64,000 bases of DNA. Origin: Verrucomicrobiota bacterium (GTDB taxonomy: Bacteria; Verrucomicrobiota; Verrucomicrobiia; Limisphaerales; PALSA-1396). The notes beneath the pieces were generated by a model. It saw nothing but the letters and a program-made list of their open reading frames with translations, was not told where the DNA came from and did not search any database. The stretch's first letter is position 1; every line of letters starts with the position of its first letter. The stretch spans positions 216,929 through 280,928 of the forward strand of contig JACQFP010000006.1 of assembly GCA_016200005.1 (NCBI GenBank), read 5' to 3'. A program made the position numbers and the translations under genes. Of the stretch, positions 2,853 to 62,035 are shown piece after piece.

Positions 2853-2963
2853 GCTGAAGTCGGGGAGCAAGCAGTTGTCGCCCGTGGTTCCAGGTCGCGC
2901 CCTCCCCACGAGGCTCAGGCACGATGTTCAAGCGCGAGACACGTGCCGGCTTCAATCGGCCGA

Positions 2964-2999
2964 AGCAAAAGAGGCACTCCGATGCCATCAGAGTGCCTC
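2964..2999 (-). terminator. rho-independent terminator downstream of the HU gene
   Basis: Perfect 9-bp stem GAGGCACTC (2971-2979) / GAGTGCCTC (2991-2999) with an 11-nt loop. On the minus strand it is followed by a TTTTG run. Confidence 0.55.
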
Positions 3000-3015
3000 A
3001 ATGAAAGCGGAAGAG

Positions 3016-3297
3016 TTAACTCAGGATGGCGTCCTTGGCGGCCTTGGCGACGCGGAACTTCACGACGCGCTTGGCGGGGATCTGAATCTGTTCGCCGGTA
3101 GCCGGGTTGCGTCCGATGCGGGCTTTGCGGTTGACCAACACGAGTTTGCCGATGCCGGGAAGAGTGAAAGTGTTCTTGGCGTTGCGATAGGCCATTTGGG
3201 CGAGTGATTCCAGGATCTGCACTGCCTGCTTCTTGCTCAGGCCGTTCTTCTCAGCGAGTTCTGCTGCGACTTGGGATTTTGAGAGTGCTTTTGACAT
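3016..3297 (-). CDS. hup: HU/IHF family DNA-binding protein
   Basis: 93 aa. LSKKQAVQILESL...FTLPGIGKLVLVNRKARIGRNPATGEQIQIPAKRVVKFR is the classic HU beta-arm sequence. Confidence 0.9.
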   Translation of the reverse strand: MSKALSKSQVAAELAEKNGLSKKQAVQILESLAQMAYRNAKNTFTLPGIGKLVLVNRKARIGRNPATGEQIQIPAKRVVKFRVAKAAKDAILS

Positions 3298-3495
3298 AGT
3301 TTGTTTTCAGTTGATGTTTGGTTAAGTAAAGTCGTTTGACTTGCGCGTATTAAAGCGTTTCACCCCGGCGGCGCAAGGAGAAAATGAAGAAATTCGCGCG
3401 AAGACAATTCTGCCTTCGGGCGCGTAAGGAGGGGCCAACGCCGGCCCCCAACCACAGGCTTGACTTGAACGGCCATTGCCACAACATCCACGTCA

Positions 3496-4503
3496 ATGGC
3501 TCTCTTCACGATTCAGAGCGAATTCCGCTACGATATCACGCGCGTGATTTTCGAAGGCGGCATGGGCGTGGTTTACGAAGCCGAACAACACGGCGCGCGC
3601 AACTTTGTCAAACGCGTCGCCATCAAGGTCATCCGCCAGAATTACGCCAATCAACAATCCTTCATCGAAAATTTCATCGGCGAAGCCAAGCTCGTCGCGG
3701 ACCTCATCCACACCAACATTGCGCAGACCTACCAACTGGGCGAGACGCGCGGCGTTTATTTCATCGCAATGGAACTGATTCGCGGCGCCAACTTGGAACA
3801 GTTCAGCCAGCAACTGGCCGACAAGAAACGCAAGCTGCCCAAAGAACTGGCCGTGTTCATCACCAGTCGCGTGGCGCGTGGACTGGCGTACGCCCACGCC
3901 AAGACGGACAAAGACGGCAAGCATCTGGGCATCGTCCACCGCGACGTCAGTTTCAAAAACATCATGATCGCGTTCGAGGGCGACGTGAAGCTGACCGATT
4001 TCGGCATCGCCAAGGCGCGCGGATTTCTCCAGGACAACGAAGGCGAAGTCGTGGCGGGCAAGGCCGATTTCATGAGCCCGGAGCAGGCCAATTTCCAGAT
4101 CACCGATAAACGCTCCGACATTTTTTCCGCCGGGGTTGTGCTGGCCAATCTCCTGCTCGGTCGGAATATCTTCAAAGGTCCCTCCCCGGAGGAATCCCGC
4201 CAGCGGATCATGAAACAACCCATCCCTGATTTCCGTACGCTCGACGACCGGATCGATGACCGCCTCAATGAGATTCTGCACCGCGCCCTGGCGCGCGAAC
4301 TGGATAAGCGTTACCCGGACGCCGACGAGCTGCTCTACAATCTGGAGCACTACATTTATCATCAAGGGTACGGCCCGACCAACGAGACGCTCGGCAAATT
4401 CATCCGCGAATTGTTCGGCCAGGCCGTTCCCCCGGCCGCCAACGATTCGAAAGGCAGCACCAAGTTGATGGAACACACCGCGCGCCTGGCTGCAAAAAAG
4501 TGA
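3496..4503 (+). CDS. serine/threonine protein kinase
   Basis: Hanks motifs: VAIKVI (VAIK Lys), HRDVSFKNIM (catalytic loop), LTDFGIAKA (DFG), SPEQ. Confidence 0.85.
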   Translation: MALFTIQSEFRYDITRVIFEGGMGVVYEAEQHGARNFVKRVAIKVIRQNYANQQSFIENFIGEAKLVADLIHTNIAQTYQLGETRGVYFIAMELIRGANLEQFSQQLADKKRKLPKELAVFITSRVARGLAYAHAKTDKDGKHLGIVHRDVSFKNIMIAFEGDVKLTDFGIAKARGFLQDNEGEVVAGKADFMSPEQANFQITDKRSDIFSAGVVLANLLLGRNIFKGPSPEESRQRIMKQPIPDFRTLDDRIDDRLNEILHRALARELDKRYPDADELLYNLEHYIYHQGYGPTNETLGKFIRELFGQAVPPAANDSKGSTKLMEHTARLAAKK

Positions 4504-9143: not shown

Positions 9144-9228
9144 CCTGACCGGACCCACCCCAACCCCTCCAAGGAGGGGAGAACTGTTCAGCGCGCGCTG
9201 ACGCAGTTCCCCTCTTGGGAGGGGGTAG
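9144..9228. repeat. double-hairpin palindromic intergenic repeat, family B copy 1
   Basis: CCCACCCCAACCCCTCCAAGGAGGGGAG ... CTCCCCTCTTGGGAGGGGGTAGGGGTGGG. The arms are mutually inverted and each arm is itself a small hairpin. Related copies at 33310, 60560 and 61930. Confidence 0.8.
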
Positions 9229-9289: not shown

Positions 9290-10222
9290 GTGACTGGCCA
9301 ACATGCTCAACCCGCAACCCTCAACTCTCAACCTCCCGGCTATCGCGGTCGCCTCGCGCCGTCGCCAACCGGCTTCTTGCATCTCGGTCACGCCCGCACC
9401 TTCTGGATTGCGCAGGCACGCGCGCGCTCCACTGGCGGCATACTGGTGTTACGCAACGAAGATATTGACGCCATGCGCTTCAAACTGGAGTTCGTCCCGG
9501 CGATGATCGAGGACCTGCGCTGGTTCGGTTTTGCGTGGCAAGAAGGGCCGGACTGCGGCGGGCCATTTGGTCCGTACAACCAAAGCCAGCGATTTCAATT
9601 CTACCGGGCCGCACTCGACAAACTACGAACCGACGGCTTCATTTACCCCTGCACCTGTTCGCGCAAAGATATTCAATCCGCTGCCCGCGCGCCGCACGCC
9701 AATGATGACGATGAACCAATCTATCCCGGCACCTGCCGCGCGCGAAAAGAGGTCAGAGGCCAGAAGTCAGATTTCGGAGTTCCGATTTCGGACCTCCGAC
9801 TTCCGACCTCCGACCTGCGCTTCAACTGGCGTTTCCGCGTCCCTGATGCCGAAACCATTTCCTTCACGGACGGCCACTACGGTCCGCAACAGTTCATCGC
9901 GGGAAACGATTTCGGCGACTTCGTTGTCTGGCGACACGATGATGTCCCTGCCTACCAACTCTCCGTCGTAGTGGACGATGCCGCCATGAAAATCACCGAA
10001 GTCGTGCGCGGCGCCGACCTGTTGAAATCCACAGCGCGCCAAATCCTCCTCTACCACGCGCTTGGTCTCCACCCACCTGCCTTTTATCATTGCCCGCTGC
10101 TGACCGATGAATCCGGTGCCCGGCTAGCCAAGCGCTACGATGCTCTCAGCCTGCGCAGACTCCGCGAGAGCGGTGGAACACCGGAATCCCTTCGCCAGCG
10201 ATGGCTTCAGTCGTTGCCTTGA
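9290..10222 (+). CDS. gluQ: glutamyl-Q tRNA(Asp) synthetase
   Basis: YRGRLAPSPTGFLHLGHARTFW (HIGH region), truncated GluRS catalytic core, 310 aa. Carries a low-complexity insert at 9750-9816. Confidence 0.8.
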   Translation: MTGQHAQPATLNSQPPGYRGRLAPSPTGFLHLGHARTFWIAQARARSTGGILVLRNEDIDAMRFKLEFVPAMIEDLRWFGFAWQEGPDCGGPFGPYNQSQRFQFYRAALDKLRTDGFIYPCTCSRKDIQSAARAPHANDDDEPIYPGTCRARKEVRGQKSDFGVPISDLRLPTSDLRFNWRFRVPDAETISFTDGHYGPQQFIAGNDFGDFVVWRHDDVPAYQLSVVVDDAAMKITEVVRGADLLKSTARQILLYHALGLHPPAFYHCPLLTDESGARLAKRYDALSLRRLRESGGTPESLRQRWLQSLP

Positions 10223-14148: not shown

Positions 14149-14218
14149 ATATACTCCCGTTCAAGCGCGCTCACTTACCCGCTTTCCCACTTTCCCACTT
14201 TCTCCTTTTCTCCCTTTC

Positions 14219-14615
14219 TCACCTGCTCCCCGTCCGCCCCTTCCCCGCCACCCACGCCTTCATCCGCGCTTCCAGAATGTCCATTGGCAATGCGCCGTTG
14301 CCGAGGAGTTCGTCGTAGAAGGCGCGTGTGTCAAACTGTTCGCCGAGTCCTTTTTGTATGTAAACGCGGAGTTCCTTCATTTTCAACTGGCCGATTTTGT
14401 AAACTAGCGCCTGTCCCGGCCAGACGACGTAGCGAGCCGGGCACGGTCATCCGCGTGTCGCCCGATGGCGAGCGCGTTTGGAAGAACGACTCGACCGAGG
14501 ACCTGTATTTCATTTGCGTCCAGGCCCGGGTCGGCATCATGGCGGGCAGCACAATTGAAGATGGTTTCCCCGTCGCCAATCCTGTCACCTGGCCTGCTTG
14601 AATCTGCGGCGCCAC
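14219..14615 (-). pseudogene. C-terminal relic of a DUF885-family gene (truncated, probably frameshifted)
   Basis: Minus-strand frame reads ...VVWPGQALVYKIGQLKMKELRVYIQKGLGEQFDTRAFYDELLGNGALPMDILEARMKAWV*, a good DUF885 C-terminus. An in-frame stop lies just upstream, and similarity seems to continue in another frame (SVESFFQT...). There is no room for the ~450-aa N-terminal part before the kinase gene at 14718. Confidence 0.55.
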
Positions 14616-25536: not shown

Positions 25537-25675
25537 GAGAAAAGTTCCAAGCTCCAACATCCAAGCTCCAGAGAAATACCAAGCGCCAAATACCAAAGCA
25601 AACAAGCGCCAGCAGGTGATTCGGTGGTGGGTGCCCGGTGCTTCCCTGGAGCTTGGTGCTTGGGATTTGATGCTT

Positions 25676-32842: not shown

Positions 32843-33283
32843 TCAACTCGGCTGCACCTGTTCGCTGAACTTTCTGAAAAACTCGTCCATCATCTTTTTG
32901 GCGGTGGCTTCGATGAGGCGTGAACCAATGGCCGCAATCAACCCGCCCACCTGCGCGTCGGCGTCGCAATGCAGTTCAGTTTGATTTCCTTTTTCCGCAA
33001 GCTTGATCTGTGCGGTGCCCTTGACGAATCCCGGCCCGCCTTTGCCTTCAATGATCAAGGTGAATGACTCCGGCGGTTTCTGTTCCTTGAGCTGTACTTT
33101 GCCGATGTAATTGCCCTTCAGTCCGGCGACGCCGATTTTCAGATGGGCATCGTAACTTTCCGCGCTGGTCTTGACCATTTTTTCACAGCCATCGATGCAG
33201 CGCTGTAAAATGTCGGGGTCGATGAGCGAGGAGAAAACTTTGTCGCGAGACGCGGCGATTTGGTACGTGGCGGTCAATTTCAT
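32843..33283 (-). CDS. CoxG-like SRPBCC family protein
   Basis: MKLTATYQIAASRDKVFSSLIDPDILQRCIDGCE...AQVGGLIAAIGSRLIEATAKKMMDEFF, typical carbon monoxide dehydrogenase subunit G family. Confidence 0.8.
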   Translation of the reverse strand: MKLTATYQIAASRDKVFSSLIDPDILQRCIDGCEKMVKTSAESYDAHLKIGVAGLKGNYIGKVQLKEQKPPESFTLIIEGKGGPGFVKGTAQIKLAEKGNQTELHCDADAQVGGLIAAIGSRLIEATAKKMMDEFFRKFSEQVQPS

Positions 33284-33309
33284 ATTCTTCAAACCTGTTG
33301 CCGAAAGTA

Positions 33310-33388
33310 ACCCACCCCCAGCCCCTCCCAAGAGGGGAGCGGCGCACGGTGGATTGTTCCCCTCCCGGGAGGGGTCAGGGGTGGGTAG
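33310..33388. repeat. family B double-hairpin repeat, copy 2
   Basis: CCCACCCCCAGCCCCTCCCAAGAGGGGAG...TTCCCCTCCCGGGAGGGGTCAGGGGTGGG, between coxG-like and coxM-like genes. Confidence 0.8.
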
Positions 33389-33496: not shown

Positions 33497-34339
33497 TCAA
33501 CGGCTGGCCGCCAGTGCCAGCGCGCGCCGGGTGTTCAGTTGGGCCAGGTGCAGCCGGAAGGCGGACGATGCATGAATGTCATTCAGCGGCTCGACTCCTT
33601 GCGCGGCTTTCCTGGCCGCTTTCTCAATCGTCTCCGTCGTGAGCGTCGCGCCGCGTAACTTGCTCTCGACCGACTTGGCGCGATACGGCTTGGGGGCGAT
33701 GCCCGTCACACCCACACGAACAGTCTTGTTGGTTTTGTCCACGACTGCCGCGACGCCCGCGATGGCAAAGCCGCTGGCTTTCTGCGCGAATTTTACATAC
33801 GCAACGGATTTGGGAGTCAGCGGCACTTGAATTTCAAAAAGAATCTCATTGGGCTGCACCGTGGACTGCATCATCTCGACAAAAAAATTTGCGGCTTTGA
33901 CCATGCGACTGCCATTCGGGCCGGCGAGGTGCAACTCGGCTTCCAGCGCGAGAATCGCCGCGGGCCAGTCCGCGGCTGGATCGGCGTGAACGAGACTGCC
34001 GCCAATGGTGCCCTTGTTGCGCACCTGAACATCACCAATGTGCGCCGCCACTTCGGGCAACAACGGGCATTGGTCGCGCAGCAACGACGACGATTCGAGT
34101 TCATAGTGCGTGGTCATCGCCCCGATGGCGATCTTCCCGTCCTGTTCGCGAATGTAGTTGAGGTCAGCAATTCGGCTGATATCGATGACCGTCTTTGGTT
34201 GCGCTAGTCGCAGTTTCATCGCTGGAATCAAACTGTGACCTCCGGCCAACACTTTCGCGTCTTCACCGTGCTGGGCCAGCAAGCCGACCGCTTCGTCGAG
34301 CGTCCCGGGTCGCAAGTAATCGAAGGCTGCGGGAATCAT
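33497..34339 (-). CDS. molybdo-hydroxylase FAD-binding medium subunit (CoxM/XdhB-like)
   Basis: FDYLRPGTLDEAVGLLAQHGEDAKVLAGGHSLIPAMKLR, the FAD_binding_5 type N-terminus. Confidence 0.85.
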   Translation of the reverse strand: MIPAAFDYLRPGTLDEAVGLLAQHGEDAKVLAGGHSLIPAMKLRLAQPKTVIDISRIADLNYIREQDGKIAIGAMTTHYELESSSLLRDQCPLLPEVAAHIGDVQVRNKGTIGGSLVHADPAADWPAAILALEAELHLAGPNGSRMVKAANFFVEMMQSTVQPNEILFEIQVPLTPKSVAYVKFAQKASGFAIAGVAAVVDKTNKTVRVGVTGIAPKPYRAKSVESKLRGATLTTETIEKAARKAAQGVEPLNDIHASSAFRLHLAQLNTRRALALAASR

Positions 34340-34373
34340 GGTGCGGAGTTACAGGGTTGCATGGTTACTTGGG

Positions 34374-36716
34374 TTACAAAGGGAGAGACGCTGATGAAAT
34401 CGCGTTCCATACTTTTTCCGGCGTCAGCGGCAGATCGAGATGCCGGACGCCGAGCGGCGAAAGCGCGTCGATGACGGCGTTGGCAATCGCCGGAGTCGCG
34501 CCGATGGTGCCAGCTTCGCCCACGCCTTTGATGCCCATCGGATTGCTCGGCGACGGCGTGACGGTGCTGCCCATCAGGTATTCCGGGATGTCGCGGGCGC
34601 GCGGCATGGCGTAGTCCATGAATTCGCCGGTGAGTAACTGGCCATTCTCGTCATAGACCGTGCGCTCGAACAAAACCTGGCCCAGCGAATGAGCAATACC
34701 GCCCTGCACCTGCCCTTCAACCAGCAATGGATTCACCTGCGGGCCGCAATCGTCCACCGTCACGTACTTCACAATCTTCACCTCACCGGTGTCGCGTTCC
34801 ACTTCAACAGCGACAATGTGCGTGCCAAAAGGAAAAGTGCAATTTGGCGGCTCGAAGAAACTGGATGCTTCAAGGCCAGGCTCGAAATTTTTCGGCAGAT
34901 TTTTCGCAACGTAAGCTTCAGCCGCCAGTTGCGCCCACGTCAGCGCTTTCTTGGGTCTGCCCTTCACAAAGAATTTCCCGTCGCGAAATTCAACTCGTTT
35001 CGCTGAAGCACCGAGCAGATGCGCAGCAAGAATTTTCGCCTTGGCGATGATCTTGTCGATGCACATGACGATGGCCGTCCCGCCCACGACCGTTGCGCGG
35101 CTGCCGTAAGTGTCGCGACCATAATGAGCCACAGCCGTGTCGCCACGCATGACGACGACGTCTTCGATGAGCACGCCGAGTTTGTCCGCGGCGATTTGAG
35201 CGAAGCTGGTTTCCTGTCCCTGTCCGTGCGGCGAGACGCCCGTGATGACGGTGACCTTGCCGGAAATCTCCATGCGCACGCAGCCCCATTCCCAACCGCC
35301 CGCGGCCATCATCTTCGACGGTCCGAGCGCGCAGATTTCGACATACGTGGAAAGGCCGACGCCAAAAAGTTTGCCGGCTTTGCGCGCCGTCTCGCGTTGC
35401 TTGAGCAGCTTGTCCCAGTTGGCCATCTTCTGCGCCTTCCGCAGCGCGCCCTGGTAATTGCCGCTGTCGTAGGTCAGACCGGTGGCGGTGTTGAAAGGAA
35501 ACTCGCTTGGCTTCGGAAAATTCTTCAGCCGCACCTTCACGGGGTCGAGACCAAGTTCATCGGCGATGATGTCCATGAGCCGTTCGACGAGGTAGGTCGC
35601 CTCCGGTCGGCCCGCGCCGCGATACGCGTCGGTGGCCATCTTGTGCGTGTAAACCCCGGTCACATCCATGCGCGCCGCCTTGAGTTTGTAACAACCGGCG
35701 AGCATCAGACCCGTCAACGTCGGAATGGCGGGCGTCAGCAGTTGCAAATACGAGCCGAGGTCGGCGATGGTGCGGGCTTTGATGGCGAGCAAGGTGCCAT
35801 CTTTTTTCACCGCCACTTCGTAATCGCCAATCTGGTCGCGGCCATGAATCGTGGCCGAGGCGTTTTCGCGGCGGCTTTCAATCCACTTGATCGGCGCACG
35901 GAGTCTCATGGCGAGGTGCGAGCAAAGCGCTTCTTCGGCGTATAGGTTTAGTTTCGAGCCAAACCCGCCGCCCACTTCTGGTGCAACGATGCGGATTTTA
36001 TTTTCCGCCACACCGATCATGCCGGGCAAGAGCGTGCGCACCAGATGCGGAATCTGCGTGGAAGTCCAGAGCGTGAGCGTGCCTTCGCCGGCGTGAAATG
36101 ACGCAACGCAGCCGCGCGGCTCGATGGCCATCGGCGTGAGCCGCTGATGAACCATCCGCTGTTTGATGACGCGATCGGCCTGCTTGAACGCGGCGTCAAG
36201 ATCGCCATTGGCCAGCGACCAGGTAAAGGCGACGTTGTTGCCGAATTCCGGATGCGTGAGCGGCGAATCTTTCGCGAGTGCTTTTTCGGGATCGCTGACC
36301 ACCGGCAACGGATCGTAGTCAACGTCGATCAAATCCAGCGCGTCGCAGGCCGCGTAACGATCGGCCGCGATCACCACGGCCACCGGATGTCCGACGAAAT
36401 AAACGCGGTCGCCAGCCAGCACGGTGTGTTTCGGCGCTTTCAAGTCAGGAAACGTGGAAGAGCACGGCACGACACCGCATTTGTCATTCACGTCGGCACC
36501 AGTGAATACGCCAACGACACCTGGGAGGGCTTTCGCGCCATCGGTCTTGATCCGGTTGATCATGGCGTGGGCGTACGGGCTGCGCAGAATGGCGGCGTGC
36601 AGCAGGCCTGACATTTTGAGGTCGTCCACATAGGTGGCGATGCCCTTGATGAGGCGCGGGTCTTCGACACGCTTCATCGCGCGACCGAAGTAGCCGTTGG
36701 ATTTCGCCGCTTTCAT
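34374..36716 (-). CDS. molybdopterin-binding large subunit (form II CoxL-like / xanthine dehydrogenase family)
   Basis: Start at ATG 36716 (MKAAKSNGYFGRAMKRVEDPRLIKG). Active-site loop AYRGAGR (form II type, not the AYxCSFR of bona fide CO dehydrogenases). Confidence 0.85.
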   Translation of the reverse strand: MKAAKSNGYFGRAMKRVEDPRLIKGIATYVDDLKMSGLLHAAILRSPYAHAMINRIKTDGAKALPGVVGVFTGADVNDKCGVVPCSSTFPDLKAPKHTVLAGDRVYFVGHPVAVVIAADRYAACDALDLIDVDYDPLPVVSDPEKALAKDSPLTHPEFGNNVAFTWSLANGDLDAAFKQADRVIKQRMVHQRLTPMAIEPRGCVASFHAGEGTLTLWTSTQIPHLVRTLLPGMIGVAENKIRIVAPEVGGGFGSKLNLYAEEALCSHLAMRLRAPIKWIESRRENASATIHGRDQIGDYEVAVKKDGTLLAIKARTIADLGSYLQLLTPAIPTLTGLMLAGCYKLKAARMDVTGVYTHKMATDAYRGAGRPEATYLVERLMDIIADELGLDPVKVRLKNFPKPSEFPFNTATGLTYDSGNYQGALRKAQKMANWDKLLKQRETARKAGKLFGVGLSTYVEICALGPSKMMAAGGWEWGCVRMEISGKVTVITGVSPHGQGQETSFAQIAADKLGVLIEDVVVMRGDTAVAHYGRDTYGSRATVVGGTAIVMCIDKIIAKAKILAAHLLGASAKRVEFRDGKFFVKGRPKKALTWAQLAAEAYVAKNLPKNFEPGLEASSFFEPPNCTFPFGTHIVAVEVERDTGEVKIVKYVTVDDCGPQVNPLLVEGQVQGGIAHSLGQVLFERTVYDENGQLLTGEFMDYAMPRARDIPEYLMGSTVTPSPSNPMGIKGVGEAGTIGATPAIANAVIDALSPLGVRHLDLPLTPEKVWNAISSASLPL

Positions 36717-37261
36717 GGTGGCGGGTGATTGGTGATCGGTGATGGGGGGTCGGTGATCGGTGACTCGGCGAGCAACGCGTCGGAACACGACAGGTCATCG
36801 TCGTTCACGCGGTAAGGGACAGAGTCTTCCCGCAAACCGAGGTTTGCGCCGGTTTTGCTTTCGCGCAGATAGCGGATATAGCCGTTAATCAGACGCAACA
36901 CGCTGGCCGCTTCCGCTTTGAGTCCTGCAACCTCGGCCGGGGTCAGATAGCCCTCGTCCTCGCAAGTGTTGAGGTCGTCAACAAGTTCCGACACCGAGCC
37001 TCTGGCGATCAGCACGAAACGGATATTGTCCGCGTAATGATACCGGCCATGCCCTTCAGCAACGTTATTGGTGACGGACAACGCGGCCTTGCGCATTTGC
37101 GGATTCAACACAAACTTCTCCGTGTCCAGCAACGACTTCGCGACACGGTACATCTTCTTTCGAAACTCTCGTGCCGTCCGATAAAGTTCCAAATCTTCAA
37201 ATGAGCCGTATCTTGTCGTTGTCTGTTCCATAACCATTTCAGTGTGTCGTAGGTTCACCAA
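36713..37261 (-). CDS. four-helix-bundle protein (23S rRNA intervening-sequence protein family)
   Basis: FEDLELYRTAREFRKKMYRV...QMRKAALSVTNNVAEGHGRYHYADNIRFVLIARGSVSELVDDL. Its C-terminal tail is encoded by GATCGGTGA-type repeats, and its stop overlaps the coxL-like ATG (ATGA). Confidence 0.8.
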   Translation of the reverse strand: MVNLRHTEMVMEQTTTRYGSFEDLELYRTAREFRKKMYRVAKSLLDTEKFVLNPQMRKAALSVTNNVAEGHGRYHYADNIRFVLIARGSVSELVDDLNTCEDEGYLTPAEVAGLKAEAASVLRLINGYIRYLRESKTGANLGLREDSVPYRVNDDDLSCSDALLAESPITDPPSPITNHPPP

Positions 37262-37282
37262 TCACAAATTAGCGATTACCGA

Positions 37283-37762
37283 TCACTTCTCCACCCGCGC
37301 CATTTTCTTCGCCGCGTATTCGATTGCATCAACAATGTGCGAATAGCCGGTGCACCGACAGAGGTTGCCTTCAATCCCATGGGCAATTTCATCGCGCGTG
37401 GGTTTGGGATTGCGTTGGAGCAATTGGACGCCGCTCAGAATCATGCCGGGCGTGCAATAACCGCACTGCAACCCGTGACATTCCCAGAAACCTTCCTGGA
37501 CCGGGTGCAACTGGCCGTTGCGGGCGAGTCCCTCGATGGTGGTGATCTGCGAACCATCCGCTTGAACGGCCAGAAGGGTGCATGACTTCACGGCTTGGCC
37601 ATCCATCAACACGGTGCAGGCGCCGCAGATGCTGGTTTCGCAGCCGATGTGAGTGCCGGTCAGGTTGCAGTGATCGCGCAGAAAATGGACCAGCAGCAGG
37701 CGGGGTTCGACTTCGTGCTGATGCTGAACTCCGTTGACGGTGATGTTGACAAGACTTTTCAT
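37283..37762 (-). CDS. (2Fe-2S)-binding small subunit (CoxS-like)
   Basis: [12 protein letters not shown] and CGYCTPG cluster motifs. Confidence 0.9.
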
Positions 37763-37918
37763 GAAAACGCATCCACGTTGATTGCCCGTCGTCAGGTAAC
37801 GGGCTGACTATAATCCTGCGCCCCGGCGTTGCAACGGGAAAAATTGCGCGCGACGCGCAGAAATATCCCCTTGCCAAATCGAGCCGGACGATTTTCAATA
37901 TCCGGGGTTCAGGGAGTT

Positions 37919-37994
<76 letters not shown>

Positions 37995-38145
37995 CTTCAA
38001 CCTCCGTTCACTTTTCATCCACTCGTCGACTATTGACAGCTTGGCAGGTCAATCCGGCCGTGTAGTTTCCTCGGTGTGCGTCTGCGCGAGTCTCTTTTCA
38101 AATGTTGCGTCTGCCACGCTTTGAAATACCATCGGTGCCAGACTC

Positions 38146-40281
38146 ATGATTTGGATCGCCCCATCCGAAAAGGACACCGACAACGCCGCACTCGAAAAAC
38201 GCCTCTGGGACGCCGCTGACCAGTTCCGCGCCAACTCCGGCCTCAAGTCCCAGGAATACTCCGCGCCCGTCCTCGGCCTCATCTTCCTGCGCTTCGCCGA
38301 GGTTCGCTTCGCTGCCCAGCGCGCCAAGCTGGAGAAAGCCAGCGCCTCCGCCCGCCGTGGATCACGGCTGGATGAACCCGCCGCCTATCACGCCGAGGGC
38401 ATCCTCTATCTGCCCGCCGAAGCGCGGTTCGATTACCTGCTCAACCGCCCCGAAGCCGAGAACATCGGCGCGAAGGTCAATGCCGCCATGCGCGACATCG
38501 AGAAGCACAACCCGCAACTCGCTGGCGTCCTGCCCAAGACCTACAACCTCTTCACCAGCACCCTGCTCAAGGAACTACTCAAGAAAGTCTCCGAGATTCC
38601 CGCCTCGCTGGACTACGACGCCTTCGGGCGCATCTACGAATACTTCCTCGGCGAGTTCGCCATGAGCGAGGGTCAGGGCGGCGGCGAATTTTACACCCCC
38701 AGCAGCATCGTCCGCCTCCTCACCGAAGTGATTGAACCCTATCACGGGCGCATCCTCGACCCCGCGTGCGGTTCGGGCGGCATGTTCGTCTCCTCCGCGC
38801 GCTTCGTCTCCGAGCACAAGCGGCAAGCTGCCGCTGGCAAATCTTCTCCCTCGCCCCTCGGAGGGGAGAGGGCCGGGGTGAGGGGTGAAAACTATTCCGG
38901 TGATCCATCCAAAGAACTCTCCATCCACGGCGTCGAGAAAACCGACGAAACCGGCCGCCTCTGCCGCCTGAACCTCGCCGTCCACGGCCTCGAAGGCGAA
39001 ATCAAACACGGCGGCAACATCAACAGCTACTACGACGACCCGCACGACGCCACCGGCCGCTTCGACTTCGTCCTCGCCAACCCGCCGTTCAACGTCAACG
39101 CCGTGGACAAGGAGCGGTTGAAAGACATGGTCGGCCCAGGCCGCCGCTTCCCCTTCGGCCTGCCGCGCACTGACAACGCCAATTACCTCTGGATTCAACT
39201 CTTCTATTCTTCGTTGAAGAATGGGGAGGCCGGAACTTCCGGCGGGCGGGCCGGCTTCGTCATGGCCAACTCCGCCTCCGACGCCCGCTCCTCCGAACAG
39301 GAACTCCGCCGCCAGCTCATCGAAAGCCGCGCCGTGGACGTGATGGTCGCCGTCGGCCCGAACCTCTTCTACACCGTCACGCTCCCCTGCACCCTCTGGT
39401 TCTTCGACAAGGGCAAGGGCAAAAGTGGGCGCACCGACTCGGTGCTGTTCATTGATGCCCGCCACATCTACCGGCAGGTGGACCGCGCGCACCGCGAATG
39501 GACGCCCGCGCAGATTGGCTTCCTCGCCAACCTCGTCCGCCTCTATCGCGGCGAAGCCCTCGACTTCACATTGGGTGGCGAAGAAGCGAAGGCCAAAATC
39601 CTTGAAGTGTTCGCCACCCAACCCTCACCCCATCCCTCTCCCAACGGGAGAGGGGGCTACAAGTTTGCCGGATTGGTCGAACGTGGTCGGGAATTGCGAA
39701 AGAAGCAGACGCCAGCCGAGGCGGTCCTGTGGGAAGTGTTGCGTGACCGGCAGTTTGAAAATCTGAAATTCCGGCGGCAACATCAGGCGGGCGATTACCT
39801 CGTGGATTTCTTCTGCCACGAACACAGCCTCGTCGTGGAGGCTGACGGCGACGTTCACGATGCTGGCTATCAGAAGAAGCACGACAAGAAGCGCGATGCA
39901 TGGCTGCGAGGACAGGGGTTCACGGTCCTGCGTTTTCGCAACGAGGACATCTTGAACGATCTTGAATCGGTGCTCGGGAAAATCGCCGCCGCTCTCCCTT
40001 CTCCCGCTGGGAGAAGGGCCGGGGATGAGGGTGACTGCAAGGTCGCGTATCGCGATGTTGCAGGCTTATGCCGCGCCGCCACGCTCAAGGAAATCGAAGC
40101 GCAAGGCTGGTCGCTCAACCCCGGCCGCTACGTCGGCGTGGCCGCCGGCGAAGCCGTGAGCGACGAGGACTTCAAGGAACAACTCGAAACGCTGAACGAG
40201 GAACTCGAAACCCTCAACGCCCAAGCGCGCGACCTCGAACAAACCATCGCCGGCAACGTGGCGGAGATTCTGGAGGCGTGA
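38146..40281 (+). CDS. hsdM: Type I restriction-modification methyltransferase subunit HsdM, carrying two in-frame insertions
   Basis: HsdM_N ([13 protein letters not shown]), AdoMet motif [11 protein letters not shown], catalytic ANPPFN, C-terminal [25 protein letters not shown]. At 711 aa it is longer than I expect for HsdM. Inserts at 38844-38887 and 39622-40031. Confidence 0.9.
38844..38887. repeat. family A ([11 protein letters not shown]) hairpin element inserted in-frame in hsdM
   Basis: TTCTCCCTCGCCCCTCGGAGGGGAGAGGGCCGGGGTGAGGGGTG, with inner stem CCCTCGCCCCTC/GAGGGGAGAGGG plus the right outer arm GGGGTGAGGGG. Translated as [16 protein letters not shown] between motif I and the rest of the methylase core. 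Confidence 0.75.
39622..40031 (+). mobile_element. inverted-repeat-bounded DUF559 (Vsr-like endonuclease domain) cassette inserted in-frame in hsdM
   Basis: Left end CCCTCACCCCATCCCTCTCCC (39622-39642), right end GGGAGAAGGGCCGGGGATGAGGG (40009-40031), imperfectly inverted. The interior encodes [58 protein letters not shown]...[17 protein letters not shown]. Boundaries are +/- a few nt. Confidence 0.7.
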
Positions 40282-40283
40282 CG

Positions 40284-41512
<1,229 letters not shown>

Positions 41513-41516
<4 letters not shown>

Positions 41517-44062
41517 ATCCGAAATCCAGTCCGCTTGGTTCAATCTGGCGAAAGTGGGATTTGCACTTTCACACGCCGGCTTCTTACGACTACGGTCACA
41601 AAGGCGCGACCAACCAGGAAATCGTTGACGGGCTACTCAAGGCCGGCATTGAGGTCGTTGCCATCACCGACCATCACCGAATCGACACGGCACGAGTCTT
41701 AGAACTTCAGAAGCTGGGAGGCGAAGACCTTACGGTGCTGCCAGGGATCGAGTTGAGGTCAGAGTTGGGCGGCAGCGACTCGGTTCACTTCATCGGCATC
41801 TTTCCTGAAGACTCCGATCTAGTGGACCTGTGGACGAAGTTGTCCGGCAAGCTCAATATCACTGAAGCAGAGGTGGCCAAGCGCGGAGACGACACGATCT
41901 ATTGTCCGTTCGTCGAAACGGCAAATGTGATACACGAACTAGGCGGCTTGGTGACCGTGCATGCTGGAAAGAAATCGAATTCTATTGAGGGCCTCAAGAA
42001 CACCGACTACATCAAACAGATTATCAAAAAGGATTTGGTCAGGGAGTGCATTGACATCTACGAGGTCGGCGATGCCACCGACATCCAAAGTTACCTTGAA
42101 AAGGTGTTCCCGCACCTTGACCGGCCAATCCCGCTGATTCTGTGCTCGGACAATCATGACATTCGGGGCTATTCGACGAAGTGCCCGCTTTGGATTAAGG
42201 GAGACAAGTCATTCGAGGCGCTGCGACAAACACTTTTTGAGCCGTCGTGTCGCGTTGGTGTTACACCGGATAAACCGCTGAAGCCGCTGTTGCGGGTGGA
42301 CCGCGTCACCTTGGATTTTCCTGCTGAAACCGAGCTGGTTTCGGAGTTTAACGGGGAAGAACGTCGCGACGCATTCTGCTTCAGAGGAAAGGCTGCGGTG
42401 GTTTTTAGTCCGTATCTCACTTGTTTGATCGGGGGAAGAGGTTCAGGCAAGAGCACTCTGCTAAATCTGATTCATGAGAAACTTGAGCGGGGACAGAACA
42501 AGTTTTTCGCTGCAAATCATCTTGCCCCACAGCCAGACGCTTCAGTCGCCACCTGTGTTCAGATTGACGGTGACACCGCAAAGAAGGTTGTCGAGTTCTT
42601 GCAGCAAAACGAAATCGAGGGCTTCGCCACCGACCCCTGGCGTTTCACGGAAGCCGTCTTTTCTAGGCTCGTGAAGCGGGACGAGGAGGGCAAACTCAAC
42701 GCGGTTAACGCTGAGTTGGCCGCCGCGTTATCCGCAACGGCTGAACAGGCGAAGCGATTACAGGAGCACACCGATTTGGTGTCACGGCTCGCAGATGCGG
42801 AGAAGGAATTAGTATCCAAGAAGGCGTTGATTGCCTCGTTCCAGAACGAAGAATACAAACGCATCAACGACGAGATGGGTAAGTTAAGCCAAGAACTCCA
42901 AGGCTTGCGAATCTGGAGGGAACGGCTTGAAGCGCTGAAGAACGACCTCAACAATTTGCCGGAACATCACAGCCATCCGATATCCGAGAACCCTAACGGC
43001 TACGAAAAAGAATTTCTGCGAATACTTGGTGTCGTCCAAGGCGCTGTGCAGCCACCTCAACCAAGTGCGGAGATGGCTGCGGCTGCCAGTCGAGAGGCTG
43101 ACTTAAACGGCCAAGTTGCCGCACTGAAAGAAAAACTCGACGCATTCCTCAGAGGGCGAGGGCTTTCGCAGGAGAATCTTGCCGATGTGGGAAAGGCAAA
43201 TCAAAGAGCTGCGCAACTGGAGCATGAGCTGCCCTCACTCAAGGCAAGAACCCAAACACTCGCCGCGCAAATCTCGGCCTTCCGGGCGCGGCGAGACTTG
43301 CCAGAAAAATACTCTGGCGCGGTCCAAGCGCTCCTCGCTCCGATTAACAATGCACTCAGGAATCTGAGCAAAGAAGTTAAACAAATCGAGTTGCACTATG
43401 AATTTGATTACGGCGCGTGTCGCCAGACGCTGATTGAACACATTCAGGATGTGTTGGGCGATGCAGGCGTCCGGATTGACCACGTCGAAAGCATGTTGCA
43501 GGACGTTGACCTGTTCCGTTTGGACAGCCGAGAAAAGTTCCTTCAAAGAATCTCGGACGCACACAAAACCGGTAAGGCCATCCGCGAGTGCTACTCGATT
43601 CCGCTGCGGTTCGACCTTCTGCGCATCGAAGTTGAACGGCAGTTGCTCGAAGTTGGAGGCTTTGGCCGTTTCCGAGTGCTTTATGACAAGAAGCCAGTCG
43701 AAAACACATCGTTCGGCCAGCGATGCACCGCGGCCATCGTCGTGCTGTTGATACTAGGGAATACACCAATCGTGATCGACGAGCCAGAAGCGCACTTGGA
43801 CAGCGCGCTCATTGCGAATTACCTGGTCGAGCTCGTGAAGAGCAAGAAGGTCAACCGCCAGATTATTTTCGCGACCCACAATGCAAACTTCGTGGTCAAC
43901 GGTGACGCCGAGCTGATCCACATTTTGGAGATGGGGGACGACAAGCAATCCAAAATCGTGAGCACAACTATCGAAGACCTGTCCCACCGCTCCGAGTTGC
44001 TTCGCCTCGAAGGTGGGCCAGAAGCTTTCTTGAAGCGCGAACACCGTTACGGCATCGCATAG
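41513..44062 (+). CDS. PHP-domain phosphoesterase fused to a Rad50/SMC-like ABC ATPase with coiled-coil insert (candidate R-M-embedded defence effector)
   Basis: PHP ligand motifs DLHFHT, ITDHH, GIE, VHAG, SDNHD in aa 1-250. Walker A GGRGSGKST (aa 307-315), ~230 aa of helical/heptad-like sequence, SFGQR, Walker B IVIDEPEAHLD (aa 753-763), FATHN. The ATG overlaps the hsdS stop (ATGA). Confidence 0.8.
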
Positions 44063-60559: not shown

Positions 60560-60640
60560 CCCACCCACCCCGGACCCCTCCCAGGAGGGGAACAATCCCA
60601 CGTGCGTTGCTCCCCTCCTGGGAGGGGCTGGGGGTGGGTT
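60560..60640. repeat. family B double-hairpin repeat, copy 3 (with extended flanks 60489-60700)
   Basis: CCCACCCACCCCGGACCCCTCCCAGGAGGGGAA...CTCCCCTCCTGGGAGGGGCTGGGGGTGGG. The left flank GTTCAGAGATTCAAGGCGCGAATTGTTTCGGGGAGTTCTCACC... is repeated in inverted form at 62038-62105. Confidence 0.8.
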
Positions 60641-61929: not shown

Positions 61930-62035
61930 AACCCGCCGCCAGCCCCTCCCAGGTGGGGAGCGGCCCGCCTGCTTCGCGGTGGGCAGGCGCACGGTCGCTT
62001 GCTTCCCTCTTGGGAGGGGTCAGGGGTGGGTTGGG
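61930..62035. repeat. family B double-hairpin repeat, copy 4 (with extended flanks 61868-62105)
   Basis: CCGCCGCCAGCCCCTCCCAGGTGGGGAG...TTCCCTCTTGGGAGGGGTCAGGGGTGGG. Flanked on both sides by GAGAATTCCCCGAAAG motifs. Confidence 0.75.

Follow-up and report, generated by a model that had tools for sequence, protein, structure and literature searches.

A candidate intervening-sequence-type cassette with a four-helix-bundle gene between inverted heptamer arrays in a cox-like operon of a Verrucomicrobiota bacterium

In a cox-like operon of a Verrucomicrobiota bacterium (GTDB lineage Bacteria; Verrucomicrobiota; Verrucomicrobiia; Limisphaerales; PALSA-1396), the genes for the small and large subunits of a molybdo-hydroxylase are separated by a gene encoding a four-helix-bundle (4HB) protein, which is bounded by inverted arrays of short repeats. 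The operon lies in a stretch of 64,000 nucleotides (GenBank assembly GCA_016200005.1, contig JACQFP010000006.1, positions 216,929 to 280,928 of the forward strand), hereafter the window, whose numbering is used throughout unless another locus is named. We consider that this element is probably an intercistronic cassette of the intervening sequence (IVS) type, made of inverted 7-mer arrays around a PF05635 gene and inserted in sense orientation precisely at the junction of the coxS stop codon with the coxL start codon. The gene is of a family that was originally noticed in the IVSs of rRNA. As judged from sequence comparison, the package of gene and mirror-image repeats recurs in at least five phyla of bacteria, one instance being a genuine 23S rRNA IVS.

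Results

A four-helix-bundle gene and its repeat arms split coxS from coxL

A preliminary description of this DNA had placed a 4HB open reading frame (ORF) between the coxS-like and coxL-like genes, and this gene order was confirmed by Pfam and NCBIfam matches, with all the genes on the minus strand. The cassette occupies about 566 bp (36717-37282) between the coxS-like stop codon and the coxL-like ATG. Its upstream arm, GTGATCGGTAATCGCTAATTTGTGATTGGTGA (37255-37286), was delimited by repeat finding and motif matches and consists of degenerate GTGATYG/GTAATYG heptamer units; the first TGA of the arm, in its first unit, serves as the stop codon of coxS (37285-37283). A short leader (37232-37254) separates the arm from the 4HB gene (36713-37231; PF05635, TIGR02436), which encodes 172 aa from the ATG at 37231. 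Other possible starts are an ATG at 37237 and a TTG at 37261. The size of 182 aa given in the preliminary description holds for the mechanical ORF from this TTG, but the orthologues P0001 and P0002 begin at ATG 37231, in agreement with the shorter protein. The downstream arm (36724-36768) is made of the complement unit, which reads GATCACC/AATCACC on the coding strand; Tandem Repeats Finder reported it as 6.3 copies of GGTGATC. On the coding strand the final 45 nt of the 4HB ORF are TCACCGATCACCGACCCCCCATCACCGATCACCAATCACC and encode the tail SPITDPPSPITNH, as expected from the earlier claim that repeat DNA is translated as the C-terminus of the protein. The downstream array is read in the 4HB frame as ...ESPITDPPSPITNHPPP*, with no stop before the sequence ATGA (36713-36716), in which the stop codon of the 4HB gene (36715-36713) overlaps the start codon of coxL. 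This overlap, also proposed earlier, is evident in the sequence and is found as well in loci L001 and L002.

The inverted repeats described at the cassette ends were supported by two perfect pairs of 11 nt (36725-36735/37255-37265) and 9 nt (36753-36761/37278-37286), by the Tandem Repeats Finder array and by a motif count: GTGATYGGTGA has four exact occurrences in the 64 kb, every one of them at one or other end of the cassette, with 0.10 expected, and this count was equalled by none of 100 shuffles. A second copy of the cassette was not found in the 64-kb window, and an Rfam scan of 36400-37600 gave no family match to it. A strict scan of the window for other short-period arrays returned only two, with GTTRAA-type arrays at chance level; the window is not saturated with elements of this kind. 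Instead of helix 25 or 45 of a 23S rRNA, the location that defines rRNA IVSs, the neighbours of the cassette are protein genes with Fer2_2 and MoCoBD domains.

Inverted arrays recur around other members of the family

To place the cassette in the context of its family we used a metagenome scan, which yielded 80 further loci with 4HB proteins 49-63% identical; they were chosen by similarity to the 4HB protein of the window, and the share of cox operons among them is inflated because of this choice. Flank complementarity was scored between 160 nt upstream and 220 nt downstream of the conserved core. The median inverted-repeat score was 43.5 for the 4HB genes (n = 72), in comparison with 17 (99th percentile 27) for geometry-matched random controls (n = 2019) and 17 (99th percentile 27-28) for gene-boundary controls of two ORF-size classes (n = 2104 and 974). 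Short-repeat inverted arrays at other copies of the gene, on which the preliminary description had made its reading depend, are therefore present: 85-87% of 71 distinct 4HB genes scored above the control 99th percentile (Mann-Whitney p = 1e-44).

The arms consist of 7-9-nt units in tandem, of the types CGTTGAAG/CGTTAAAT, GTTAAATSA, GGTTACATG and AGTTAAAA, with GGTGATT in the clade of the window. As to polarity, the arrangement (GTTRAA-like)n...(complement)n was observed 45 times around a 4HB gene and 10 times without a gene, and the reverse configuration once. Neighbouring genes were co-oriented with the cassette in 42 of 50 cases upstream and 44 of 53 downstream; the stop codon of the upstream gene lay from -38 to +18 nt from the first unit, and the downstream start codon followed the last unit by 0-13 nt in 25 of 36 cases. 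The host junctions include sdhA/sdhB, coxL|coxM, kdsB|pyrG, pdhA|pdhB, cysH|cysD, nuoB|nuoC and ECF-sigma|kinase. Cassettes at coxL|coxM were present in L005, L007 and 12 metagenome loci (L086, L087, L097, L099, L119, L121, L122, L127, L135, L142, L149 and L157), some of them with a CoxL 88-89% identical to that of the window. That every downstream arm lacks stop codons and is therefore translated was rejected, as this applies only to some unit types (AATCACC, TTCAAC). Units such as TTTAAC and TGTAAC contain TAA, and the 4HB stop codon often falls within the first downstream unit, so that the translated tail is a by-product.

Inverted arrays were also detected at distant members of the family, namely at three (L016, L053 and, weakly, L025) of four acidobacterial copies and at five of six others, among plasmid-borne genes of Gemmatimonadota and Cyanobacteriota and an Azospirillum 23S rRNA. 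A second 4HB paralogue of L002 is likewise flanked by inverted arrays, with AATGACGA arms. The distant copies of this build, among them those of Gemmatirosa, of two Nostoc plasmids and of Picosynechococcus (cmr2|cmr3), have units unrelated to those of the window. The 4HB gene of L167, on a cyanobacterial plasmid, lies between cas10/cmr2 and cmr3 (1489-1845), and that of L168 between cas6 and cas4 (1492-1851), with CTAAAAG x16 upstream and CCAAAAG downstream. Locus L166 is an authentic 23S rRNA of Azospirillum (Rfam LSU, 2548 bits), and its IVS is a 4HB ORF between GAGGACG/GAGGACA 7-mer arms (fold z-score -9.3). The link to the rRNA IVS family that had been drawn for the window gene was thus borne out by an IVS of the same build.

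Arms and gene are inherited, and decay, as one unit

The nuo operon of L143 contains two cassettes (315-875 and 2935-3496), one at nuoB|nuoC and one after the next large gene, which are 74% identical over 567 nt. Their homology stops at both outer arm ends, and between these paralogues the arms are conserved at least as well as the coding sequence. Between the two full cassettes lies a hairpin (1549-1666, nuoC|nuoD) that has their unit type but no gene. Over the whole set, the nearest neighbour in the protein phylogeny had the identical unit type in 64 of 66 cases, a value matched by 0 of 1000 permutations. These comparisons show that arms and gene duplicate and are passed on together. In addition, two orthologous Nostoc plasmid operons (L165 and L169, 85-94% nucleotide identity) carry unrelated cassettes at adjacent junctions, each operon being empty where the other is filled, and the insertions lie exactly in 3-nt stop-to-ATG spacers. 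No obvious target-site duplication was found at these two clean filled/empty sites. In the window, a TGA flanks both sides of the cassette, yet these are the coxS stop codon and the ATGA overlap. An origin of the repeat units by copying from the local target, for instance from an ancestral GTGA overlap, was rejected because the unit type tracks the protein phylogeny, the L143 arms are shared across junctions and the empty sites have no precursor.

Forms that have lost the gene were observed as well. The coxL|coxM junction of L008 holds an internally deleted element in which 32 codons of the 4HB gene are fused to the downstream arm, and gene-less hairpins of the same unit types were found at coxS|coxL in L007 and L008 and at coxM|coxG in L060. 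Cassettes thus decay by internal deletion into gene-less hairpins and solo arms. In the window, a solo array of the downstream type, TTGTAACC CAAGTAACC ATGCAACC CTGTAAC (34343-34378, minus strand), fills the gap between the coxL stop codon and the coxM ATG and is unique, with 0.005 expected. The end of the window coxL, ...SLPL*+TTGTAACC, resembles the end of the 4HB gene, ...TSLPL*+TTGTAACC, in L087 and L099, two loci whose coxL|coxM junction holds a complete cassette of GTTACA type. From these ~20 aligned bases we infer that 34343-34378 may be what is left of a second cassette, now lost, which supplied coxL with its final codons. The 4HB protein is all that the cassette encodes, and no transposase was found among the listed neighbours of cassettes. 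The mobility suggested in the preliminary description holds in an evolutionary sense, given the gain and loss at junctions, the L143 duplication and the filled/empty pairs; it does not extend to current activity or to a mechanism.

Two further repeat loci in cox-like operons were recorded. The downstream arm of the coxL|coxM cassette of L007 (~9780-9990) has grown to more than 20 copies of ATTCAACG, with about 8 units in the upstream arm, and these arrays seem to behave like unstable microsatellites. The coxL|coxM spacer of L015 (181 nt, 9509-9690) contains a gene-less hairpin of a different unit family (CACAGATGA / CCACGGATGAA ... CCGTGTCCATCTGTTTTCATTCGTGG), reminiscent of the arms of the second L002 paralogue.

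The insertion is confined to one lineage and its protein is constrained

The closest named relatives, picked by a genome scan with CoxL, were Verrucomicrobia/Limisphaerales metagenome-assembled genomes (MAGs) with CoxL 77-85% identical. In nine of these (L004, L021, L009, L060, L006, L012, L010, L015 and L063), coxS and coxL overlap or are at most 24 nt apart, with no 4HB gene; judging by L021 and L012, the two genes seem to have been joined ancestrally by a GTGA stop/start overlap. The comparison of cox-like operons called for earlier thus found that the 4HB gene is not conserved at coxS|coxL. The C-terminus of coxS has the same length as in cassette-free relatives. Among the loci compared, a cassette at coxS|coxL was present only in the window, in L001 (4HB protein 92% identical) and in L002/L003 (4HB 74%, CoxL 88% identical); these cassettes have the unit type of the window in different copy numbers and retain the ATGA overlap. 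Between the window and L002, the 4HB gene, coxS and coxL had dS values (synonymous divergence) of 0.94, 1.04 and 0.99 and dN/dS ratios (nonsynonymous to synonymous) of 0.15 (0.09 in the core), 0.15 and 0.09, respectively. Since dS is like that of the flanking genes and dN/dS is 0.15, the cassette has been co-inherited since the split of the window and L002 lineages and encodes a protein under purifying selection. Altogether, the comparisons indicate a lineage-specific and old insertion. A neighbour-joining tree (115 aligned residues, no support values) hints that coxL|coxM cassettes are polyphyletic, and we do not rely on it.

The 4HB protein is predicted to have an Avd-like fold

The protein matched PF05635 over the full length of the model (1-106; E = 4.5e-27, 94.8 bits, cutoff 33.8) and TIGR02436 with 87.6 bits (cutoff 24), and its closest solved structure was XCC0516 (PDB 2GSC; phmmer E = 4e-12). 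An AF2 monomer model of 175 residues had a pLDDT (predicted local distance difference test) of 77 overall and above 90 in the core, with helices at residues 18-36, 45-63, 69-96 and 101-130; the C-terminal 45 residues were predicted to be disordered, with a pLDDT below 50 in the repeat-encoded tail. Foldseek placed 2GSC and 2RLD first (target TM 0.91-0.94 and 0.82-0.89) and Avd next (4dwl/8ube/8ub7, 0.80-0.85). By family match and model, the protein is predicted to be a PF05635/TIGR02436 four-helix up-down bundle with an Avd-like fold, and the homology between PF05635 and Avd has been pointed out (PMC10053308). The bAvd-like family PF22296 gave weak matches in relatives, and the window protein did not reach it even at E<=1. 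No recognisable catalytic domain was found in the 120-170-aa helical bundle in the Pfam, PF22296 and Foldseek comparisons.

The cassette ends are predicted to pair in the transcript

Both the minimum free energy (MFE) and the centroid folds closed the cassette with three long-range helices, predicted to pair 37298-37291 with 36728-36721 (8 bp), 37286-37278 with 36740-36732 (9 bp) and 37265-37255 with 36763-36753 (11 bp). The 5' strand of the outermost of these is predicted to be GCGGGTGG (37291-37298, minus strand), within the 3' end of coxS. About 35 bp were expected between the cassette ends in the ensemble, and the end duplex energy was -53.5 kcal/mol, in comparison with -33.8 ± 4.6 for shuffles. 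The arms of the window are distinctive through the clustering of their motif and through the predicted 8+9+11 bp long-range helices, and do not form one long perfect palindrome.

Host operon and other repeats of the window

The operon runs on the minus strand from the coxS-like [2Fe-2S] small-subunit gene (37283-37762; Pfam Fer2_2, 4.1e-33) through the coxL-like molybdopterin large-subunit gene (34374-36716, ATG at 36716; MoCoBD_1/2 and Ald_Xan_dh_C) and the coxM-like FAD subunit gene (33497-34339; FAD_binding_5 and CO_deh_flav_C) to the coxG-like gene, which is the last (32843-33331; COXG). A promoter scan gave a single sigma-70-like match near the operon, upstream of coxS (37807-37834, minus strand), which is a consensus match of low confidence, and the promoter and terminator scan detected neither element inside the cassette, these scans being weak tests for this phylum. 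All the NCBIfam matches of the coxL-like protein were under equivalog cutoffs, with 695.8 bits for TIGR02416 (CO dehydrogenase large subunit), whose cutoff is 991.15. The protein contains the motif AYRGAGR, which we take to be of form II type. The host enzyme is accordingly described, from its sequence, as a cox-like molybdo-hydroxylase, since it lacks the CoxL equivalog match or active-site signature by which form I aerobic CO dehydrogenases are recognised.

Two other short-repeat hairpins were noted in the window. The first (9748-9823, plus strand) is a 75-nt hairpin of 7-nt units (AGAGGTC AGAGGCC AGAAGTC ... GACCTCC GACTTCC GACCTCC) that lies in frame within a GluQ/tRNA-synt_1c-type ORF (Pfam; 9290-10222) and is read as ...EVRGQKSDFGVPISDLRLPTSDLR... 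Its units resemble the GGAGTCA/GAAGTCA arms of a Nostoc punctiforme 4HB cassette, and it may be a gene-less cassette remnant tolerated in coding sequence. The second (25540-25660) is intergenic, with CCAAGCT/CCAAGCG-type arms (TTCCAAGCTCCAACATCCAAGCTCCAG ... CTGGAGCTTGGTGCTTGGGA) of a unit family different from that of the coxS|coxL cassette and a loop devoid of a gene. An 8-mer array, CTTTCCCA/CTTTCTCC, was found at 14172-14229, where no inverted partner was detected, and CTCAACC x4 at 9306-9333, at the start of the GluQ-like ORF. GC-rich palindromes CCCCTC-N4-GAGGGG, paired ~37-60 nt apart, had 17 matches in the window vs 0.29 expected (9164-9224, 33322-33374, 60575-60627, 61943-62019), with one pair in the coxM|coxG spacer. 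This family is REP-like (repetitive extragenic palindromic), unrelated to the heptamer arms, and is read within ORFs as ...PLLGGEG.../...PSP..GRG...

Upstream of the cox-like operon, a tRNA-Phe (GAA) gene (37919-37994, plus strand) separates it from a plus-strand block (38146-44062) of hsdM, hsdS and a gene for an 849-aa AAA_15/AAA_21 (AbiEii-like) ATPase, and the region 37919-44062 looks like a tRNA-adjacent defence island. The HsdM protein (38146-40281; HsdM_N and N6_Mtase) contains an in-frame DUF559/Vsr-like endonuclease domain (E = 1.7e-35) at residues 512-617 (~39679-39996), with GC-rich coding segments on either side. In L002 a free-standing DUF559 gene lies between two copies of the operon. 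DUF559 may represent, in these genomes, a second type of small gene that hitch-hikes.

Discussion

If the element is an IVS-type cassette, as we consider probable, it would lack a promoter of its own and be transcribed as part of the operon mRNA. Its arms would then pair and loop it out, leaving the coxS stop codon (37285-37283) and the coxL AUG (36716-36714) a few nucleotides apart at the base of the stem, a geometry that would mimic the ancestral GTGA/ATGA stop-start overlap and let the translational coupling of the flanking cistrons survive. Ribosomes that terminate at coxS, or that translate the 4HB tail across the downstream arm as far as the ATGA, might open the stem and give access to coxL. 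The earlier suggestion that the insertion preserves operon coupling is thus plausible, as an inference from the ATGA overlap and the stem geometry. In family members with near-perfect arms of 25-100 bp, the stem would be double-stranded RNA of the type that RNase III cuts from 23S rRNA, and cutting would free the 4HB mRNA and break the operon transcript in two; an IVS with an S23p ORF and a 28-bp terminal stem has been reported to be excised by RNase III (PMC4990558). By analogy with Avd, the 4HB protein is probably a pentameric nucleic-acid-binding scaffold, which may bind its own repeat arms.

Several results weigh against this reading. The arms of the window are interrupted, with a gapped inverted-repeat score (22) below the control 99th percentile (27), and its stem is weaker than that of most family members; the end duplex energy reaches only the 5th percentile of genomic controls. 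The fold of the L002 cassette was no better than that of shuffles (z = -0.53). Arm mismatches in 74 loci included 88 G:U-compatible and 105 A:C pairs, a count that shows no selection for pairing in the sense RNA, and the variable R/Y position of the GTTRAA unit was independent between arms (71 vs 71). To judge from the sequences, this pattern of mismatches is explained at least as well by motif arrays or homogenisation at the DNA level as by an RNA stem. Furthermore, L073 and L168 have direct instead of inverted arrays. No near-identical dispersed copies were observed among the loci examined, and current mobility is for this reason unproven.

The lack of a G:U excess, the weak window arms and the unremarkable L002 fold make a role of the arms at the DNA level a serious rival, although we regard it as less than probable. 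The arms would then serve a recombination or transposition machinery as binding-site arrays or terminal inverted repeats, or would be hairpins of single-stranded DNA (ssDNA) as in REPIN/RAYT or IS200/IS605-like systems, and the 4HB protein would be the specificity or accessory factor of the element, with RNA pairing and coupling as side effects. Such a role would be consistent with the conserved core motifs (GTTRAA, GTTRCA, GTGATY) and their strictly fixed polarity, with the conservation and sharp ends of the L143 arms, with the covariation of unit type and 4HB protein, and with gene-less hairpins that resemble non-autonomous derivatives. Repeated hits on 3-nt stop/start spacers are also hard to obtain by random insertion and selection alone. 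On the other hand, no transposase, integrase or HUH gene is present in the cassettes or beside them among the listed neighbours, the small helical bundle has no recognisable catalytic domain, no clear target-site duplication accompanies the two clean filled/empty sites and no near-identical dispersed copies were observed. The strong co-orientation with host transcription argues that expression, perhaps as RNA, matters. RNA and DNA roles of the arms are compatible with each other.

It is very improbable that the 4HB protein is a dedicated accessory factor, chaperone or regulator, of the molybdo-hydroxylase and that the repeats are microsatellites present incidentally. Such a function would agree with purifying selection and with inheritance of the gene alongside the operon, as well as with the ~17 of 91 loci that are cox-like operons with a 4HB gene at coxS|coxL or coxL|coxM, a share that is inflated by the sampling. 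However, the nearest named relatives have the operon without the gene, and in other relatives it sits at a different junction, in copies interspersed with those of unrelated operons in the neighbour-joining tree. The same subfamily is found in sdh, nuo, pdh, kdsB-pyrG and cys operons, and distant members in CRISPR-cas operons and inside 23S rRNA; flank complementarity and fixed polarity argue that the repeats are not incidental.

We give equally little credence to a secondary association in which a REP-like or terminator hairpin of short repeats was there first and the 4HB gene inserted into it. Gene-less hairpins do occur at like junctions (coxS|coxL in L007 and L008, coxM|coxG in L060), and the window has the hairpins at 9748-9823 and 25540-25660, with unrelated units. 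Against this, the arms and gene of L143 form one homologous block, the 32 4HB codons kept between the arms in L008 argue that hairpins derive from cassettes by deletion, the unit type follows the protein phylogeny, and the empty L165/L169 sites are 3-nt spacers with no hairpin.

The possibility that the 4HB protein is the Avd component of a diversity-generating retroelement, suggested by the fold similarity to Avd (target TM 0.80-0.85) and the weak PF22296 matches of relatives, is effectively refuted for this locus within the 64-kb window: no reverse transcriptase was found among the Pfam-scanned window ORFs of ~30.0-44.1 kb (cox genes, HsdM/HsdS, AAA ATPase, oxidoreductase) and no RVT domain among the genes called within 10 kb on either side of the L002 cassette, the window protein stays below PF22296 even at E<=1, and 30-44 kb contains no template/variable-repeat pair, its lone direct repeat of at least 35 nt being a 40-nt one with 70% match in unrelated genes.

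Returning to the IVS-type reading, the closest known systems are the 23S rRNA IVSs with an S23p ORF of Leptospira and Coxiella (Warrier et al. 2016, PMC4990558, citing Ralph & McClelland 1993). They have in common with the cassette the ORF family, a closing stem, a sporadic distribution and a suspected horizontal origin, and the Azospirillum IVS (L166) has arms of 7-nt tandem units as well. They differ in that the window cassette lies between protein-coding genes of an operon instead of in helix 25 or 45, and in that its downstream arm is translated, with a stop codon overlapping the next start. In the searchable full-text literature, which does not cover all journals, we came across no account of operon-borne 4HB cassettes flanked by repeat arrays, nor, in the searchable papers, of tandem-repeat arms or an operon-junction habit of S23p-type elements. 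With Avd (PDB 4DWL, 8UBE) the window protein shares the four-helix-bundle fold (target TM 0.80-0.85), whereas sequence identity is ~15% and the window has no adjacent reverse transcriptase or template/variable repeats.

REPINs and RAYT genes, reportedly described by Nunvar in 2010 and by Bertels and Rainey in 2011, offer another parallel. There too, a gene is flanked by inverted short repeats and accompanied by many gene-less intergenic hairpins, but the gene is a Y1/HUH transposase instead of a 4HB protein, and the REPIN arms are single palindromes instead of tandem arrays of 7-9-nt units. The cassettes differ further in their many gene-carrying copies per genome, with a unit type proper to each subfamily. 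MITEs, which are miniature transposable elements with inverted repeats, and internally deleted transposons also exist in full-length and short hairpin forms with the same ends, and L008, with its 32 codons, would be the corresponding intermediate; by contrast, the cassettes have no transposase, no clear target-site duplication and no high-copy near-identical family among the loci seen. Heptamers of cyanobacteria, the short tandemly repeated repetitive (STRR) sequences, are said to have been described by Mazel in 1990. The over-represented heptamers GGGAATC of Xanthomonas and GGGGAYT of Nostoc (Rehm et al. 2015, PMC4692102) are intergenic, lie between co-oriented genes near the upstream ORF and often form convergent pairs capable of stem-loops; that study reads them as G-quadruplex formers and draws no link to 4HB genes. 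As tandem 7-mers in convergent pairs between co-oriented genes, they are like the cassette arms.

A broader proposal, which we put forward as doubtful, is that PF05635 proteins are the specificity factor of phylum-spanning, hairpin-ended mobile cassettes that home to stop/start junctions of transcribed operons and to rRNA helices, that might move, in view of the homology to Avd, through an RNA or single-strand intermediate with a trans-acting enzyme (e.g. a reverse transcriptase), and whose decayed arms would have given rise to STRR, GGGAATC arrays and rRNA IVSs. The origin and mobility of rRNA IVSs have stood as open questions for some 30 years (PMC4990558). Should IVSs be a special case of a widespread operon-junction cassette, with defined ends, filled and empty sites and decay products, the question of their origin becomes testable. 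The cassettes would also be a possible origin for intergenic tandem 7-9-mers in convergent pairs, until now discussed only as G-quadruplex or slippage products (PMC4692102). Domains named '23S rRNA IVP' have been listed as CRISPR-associated (PMC10910872), and this association may be hitch-hiking, because the 4HB gene occurs at cmr2|cmr3 and cas6|cas4 just as it does in sdh, nuo and cox operons. Finally, the cassettes alter the operons that carry them, through added stop codons, double-stranded RNA stems, disordered C-terminal tails and, in the window, an apparently chimeric coxL C-terminus, and these alterations bear on the annotation and the expression of the host genes.

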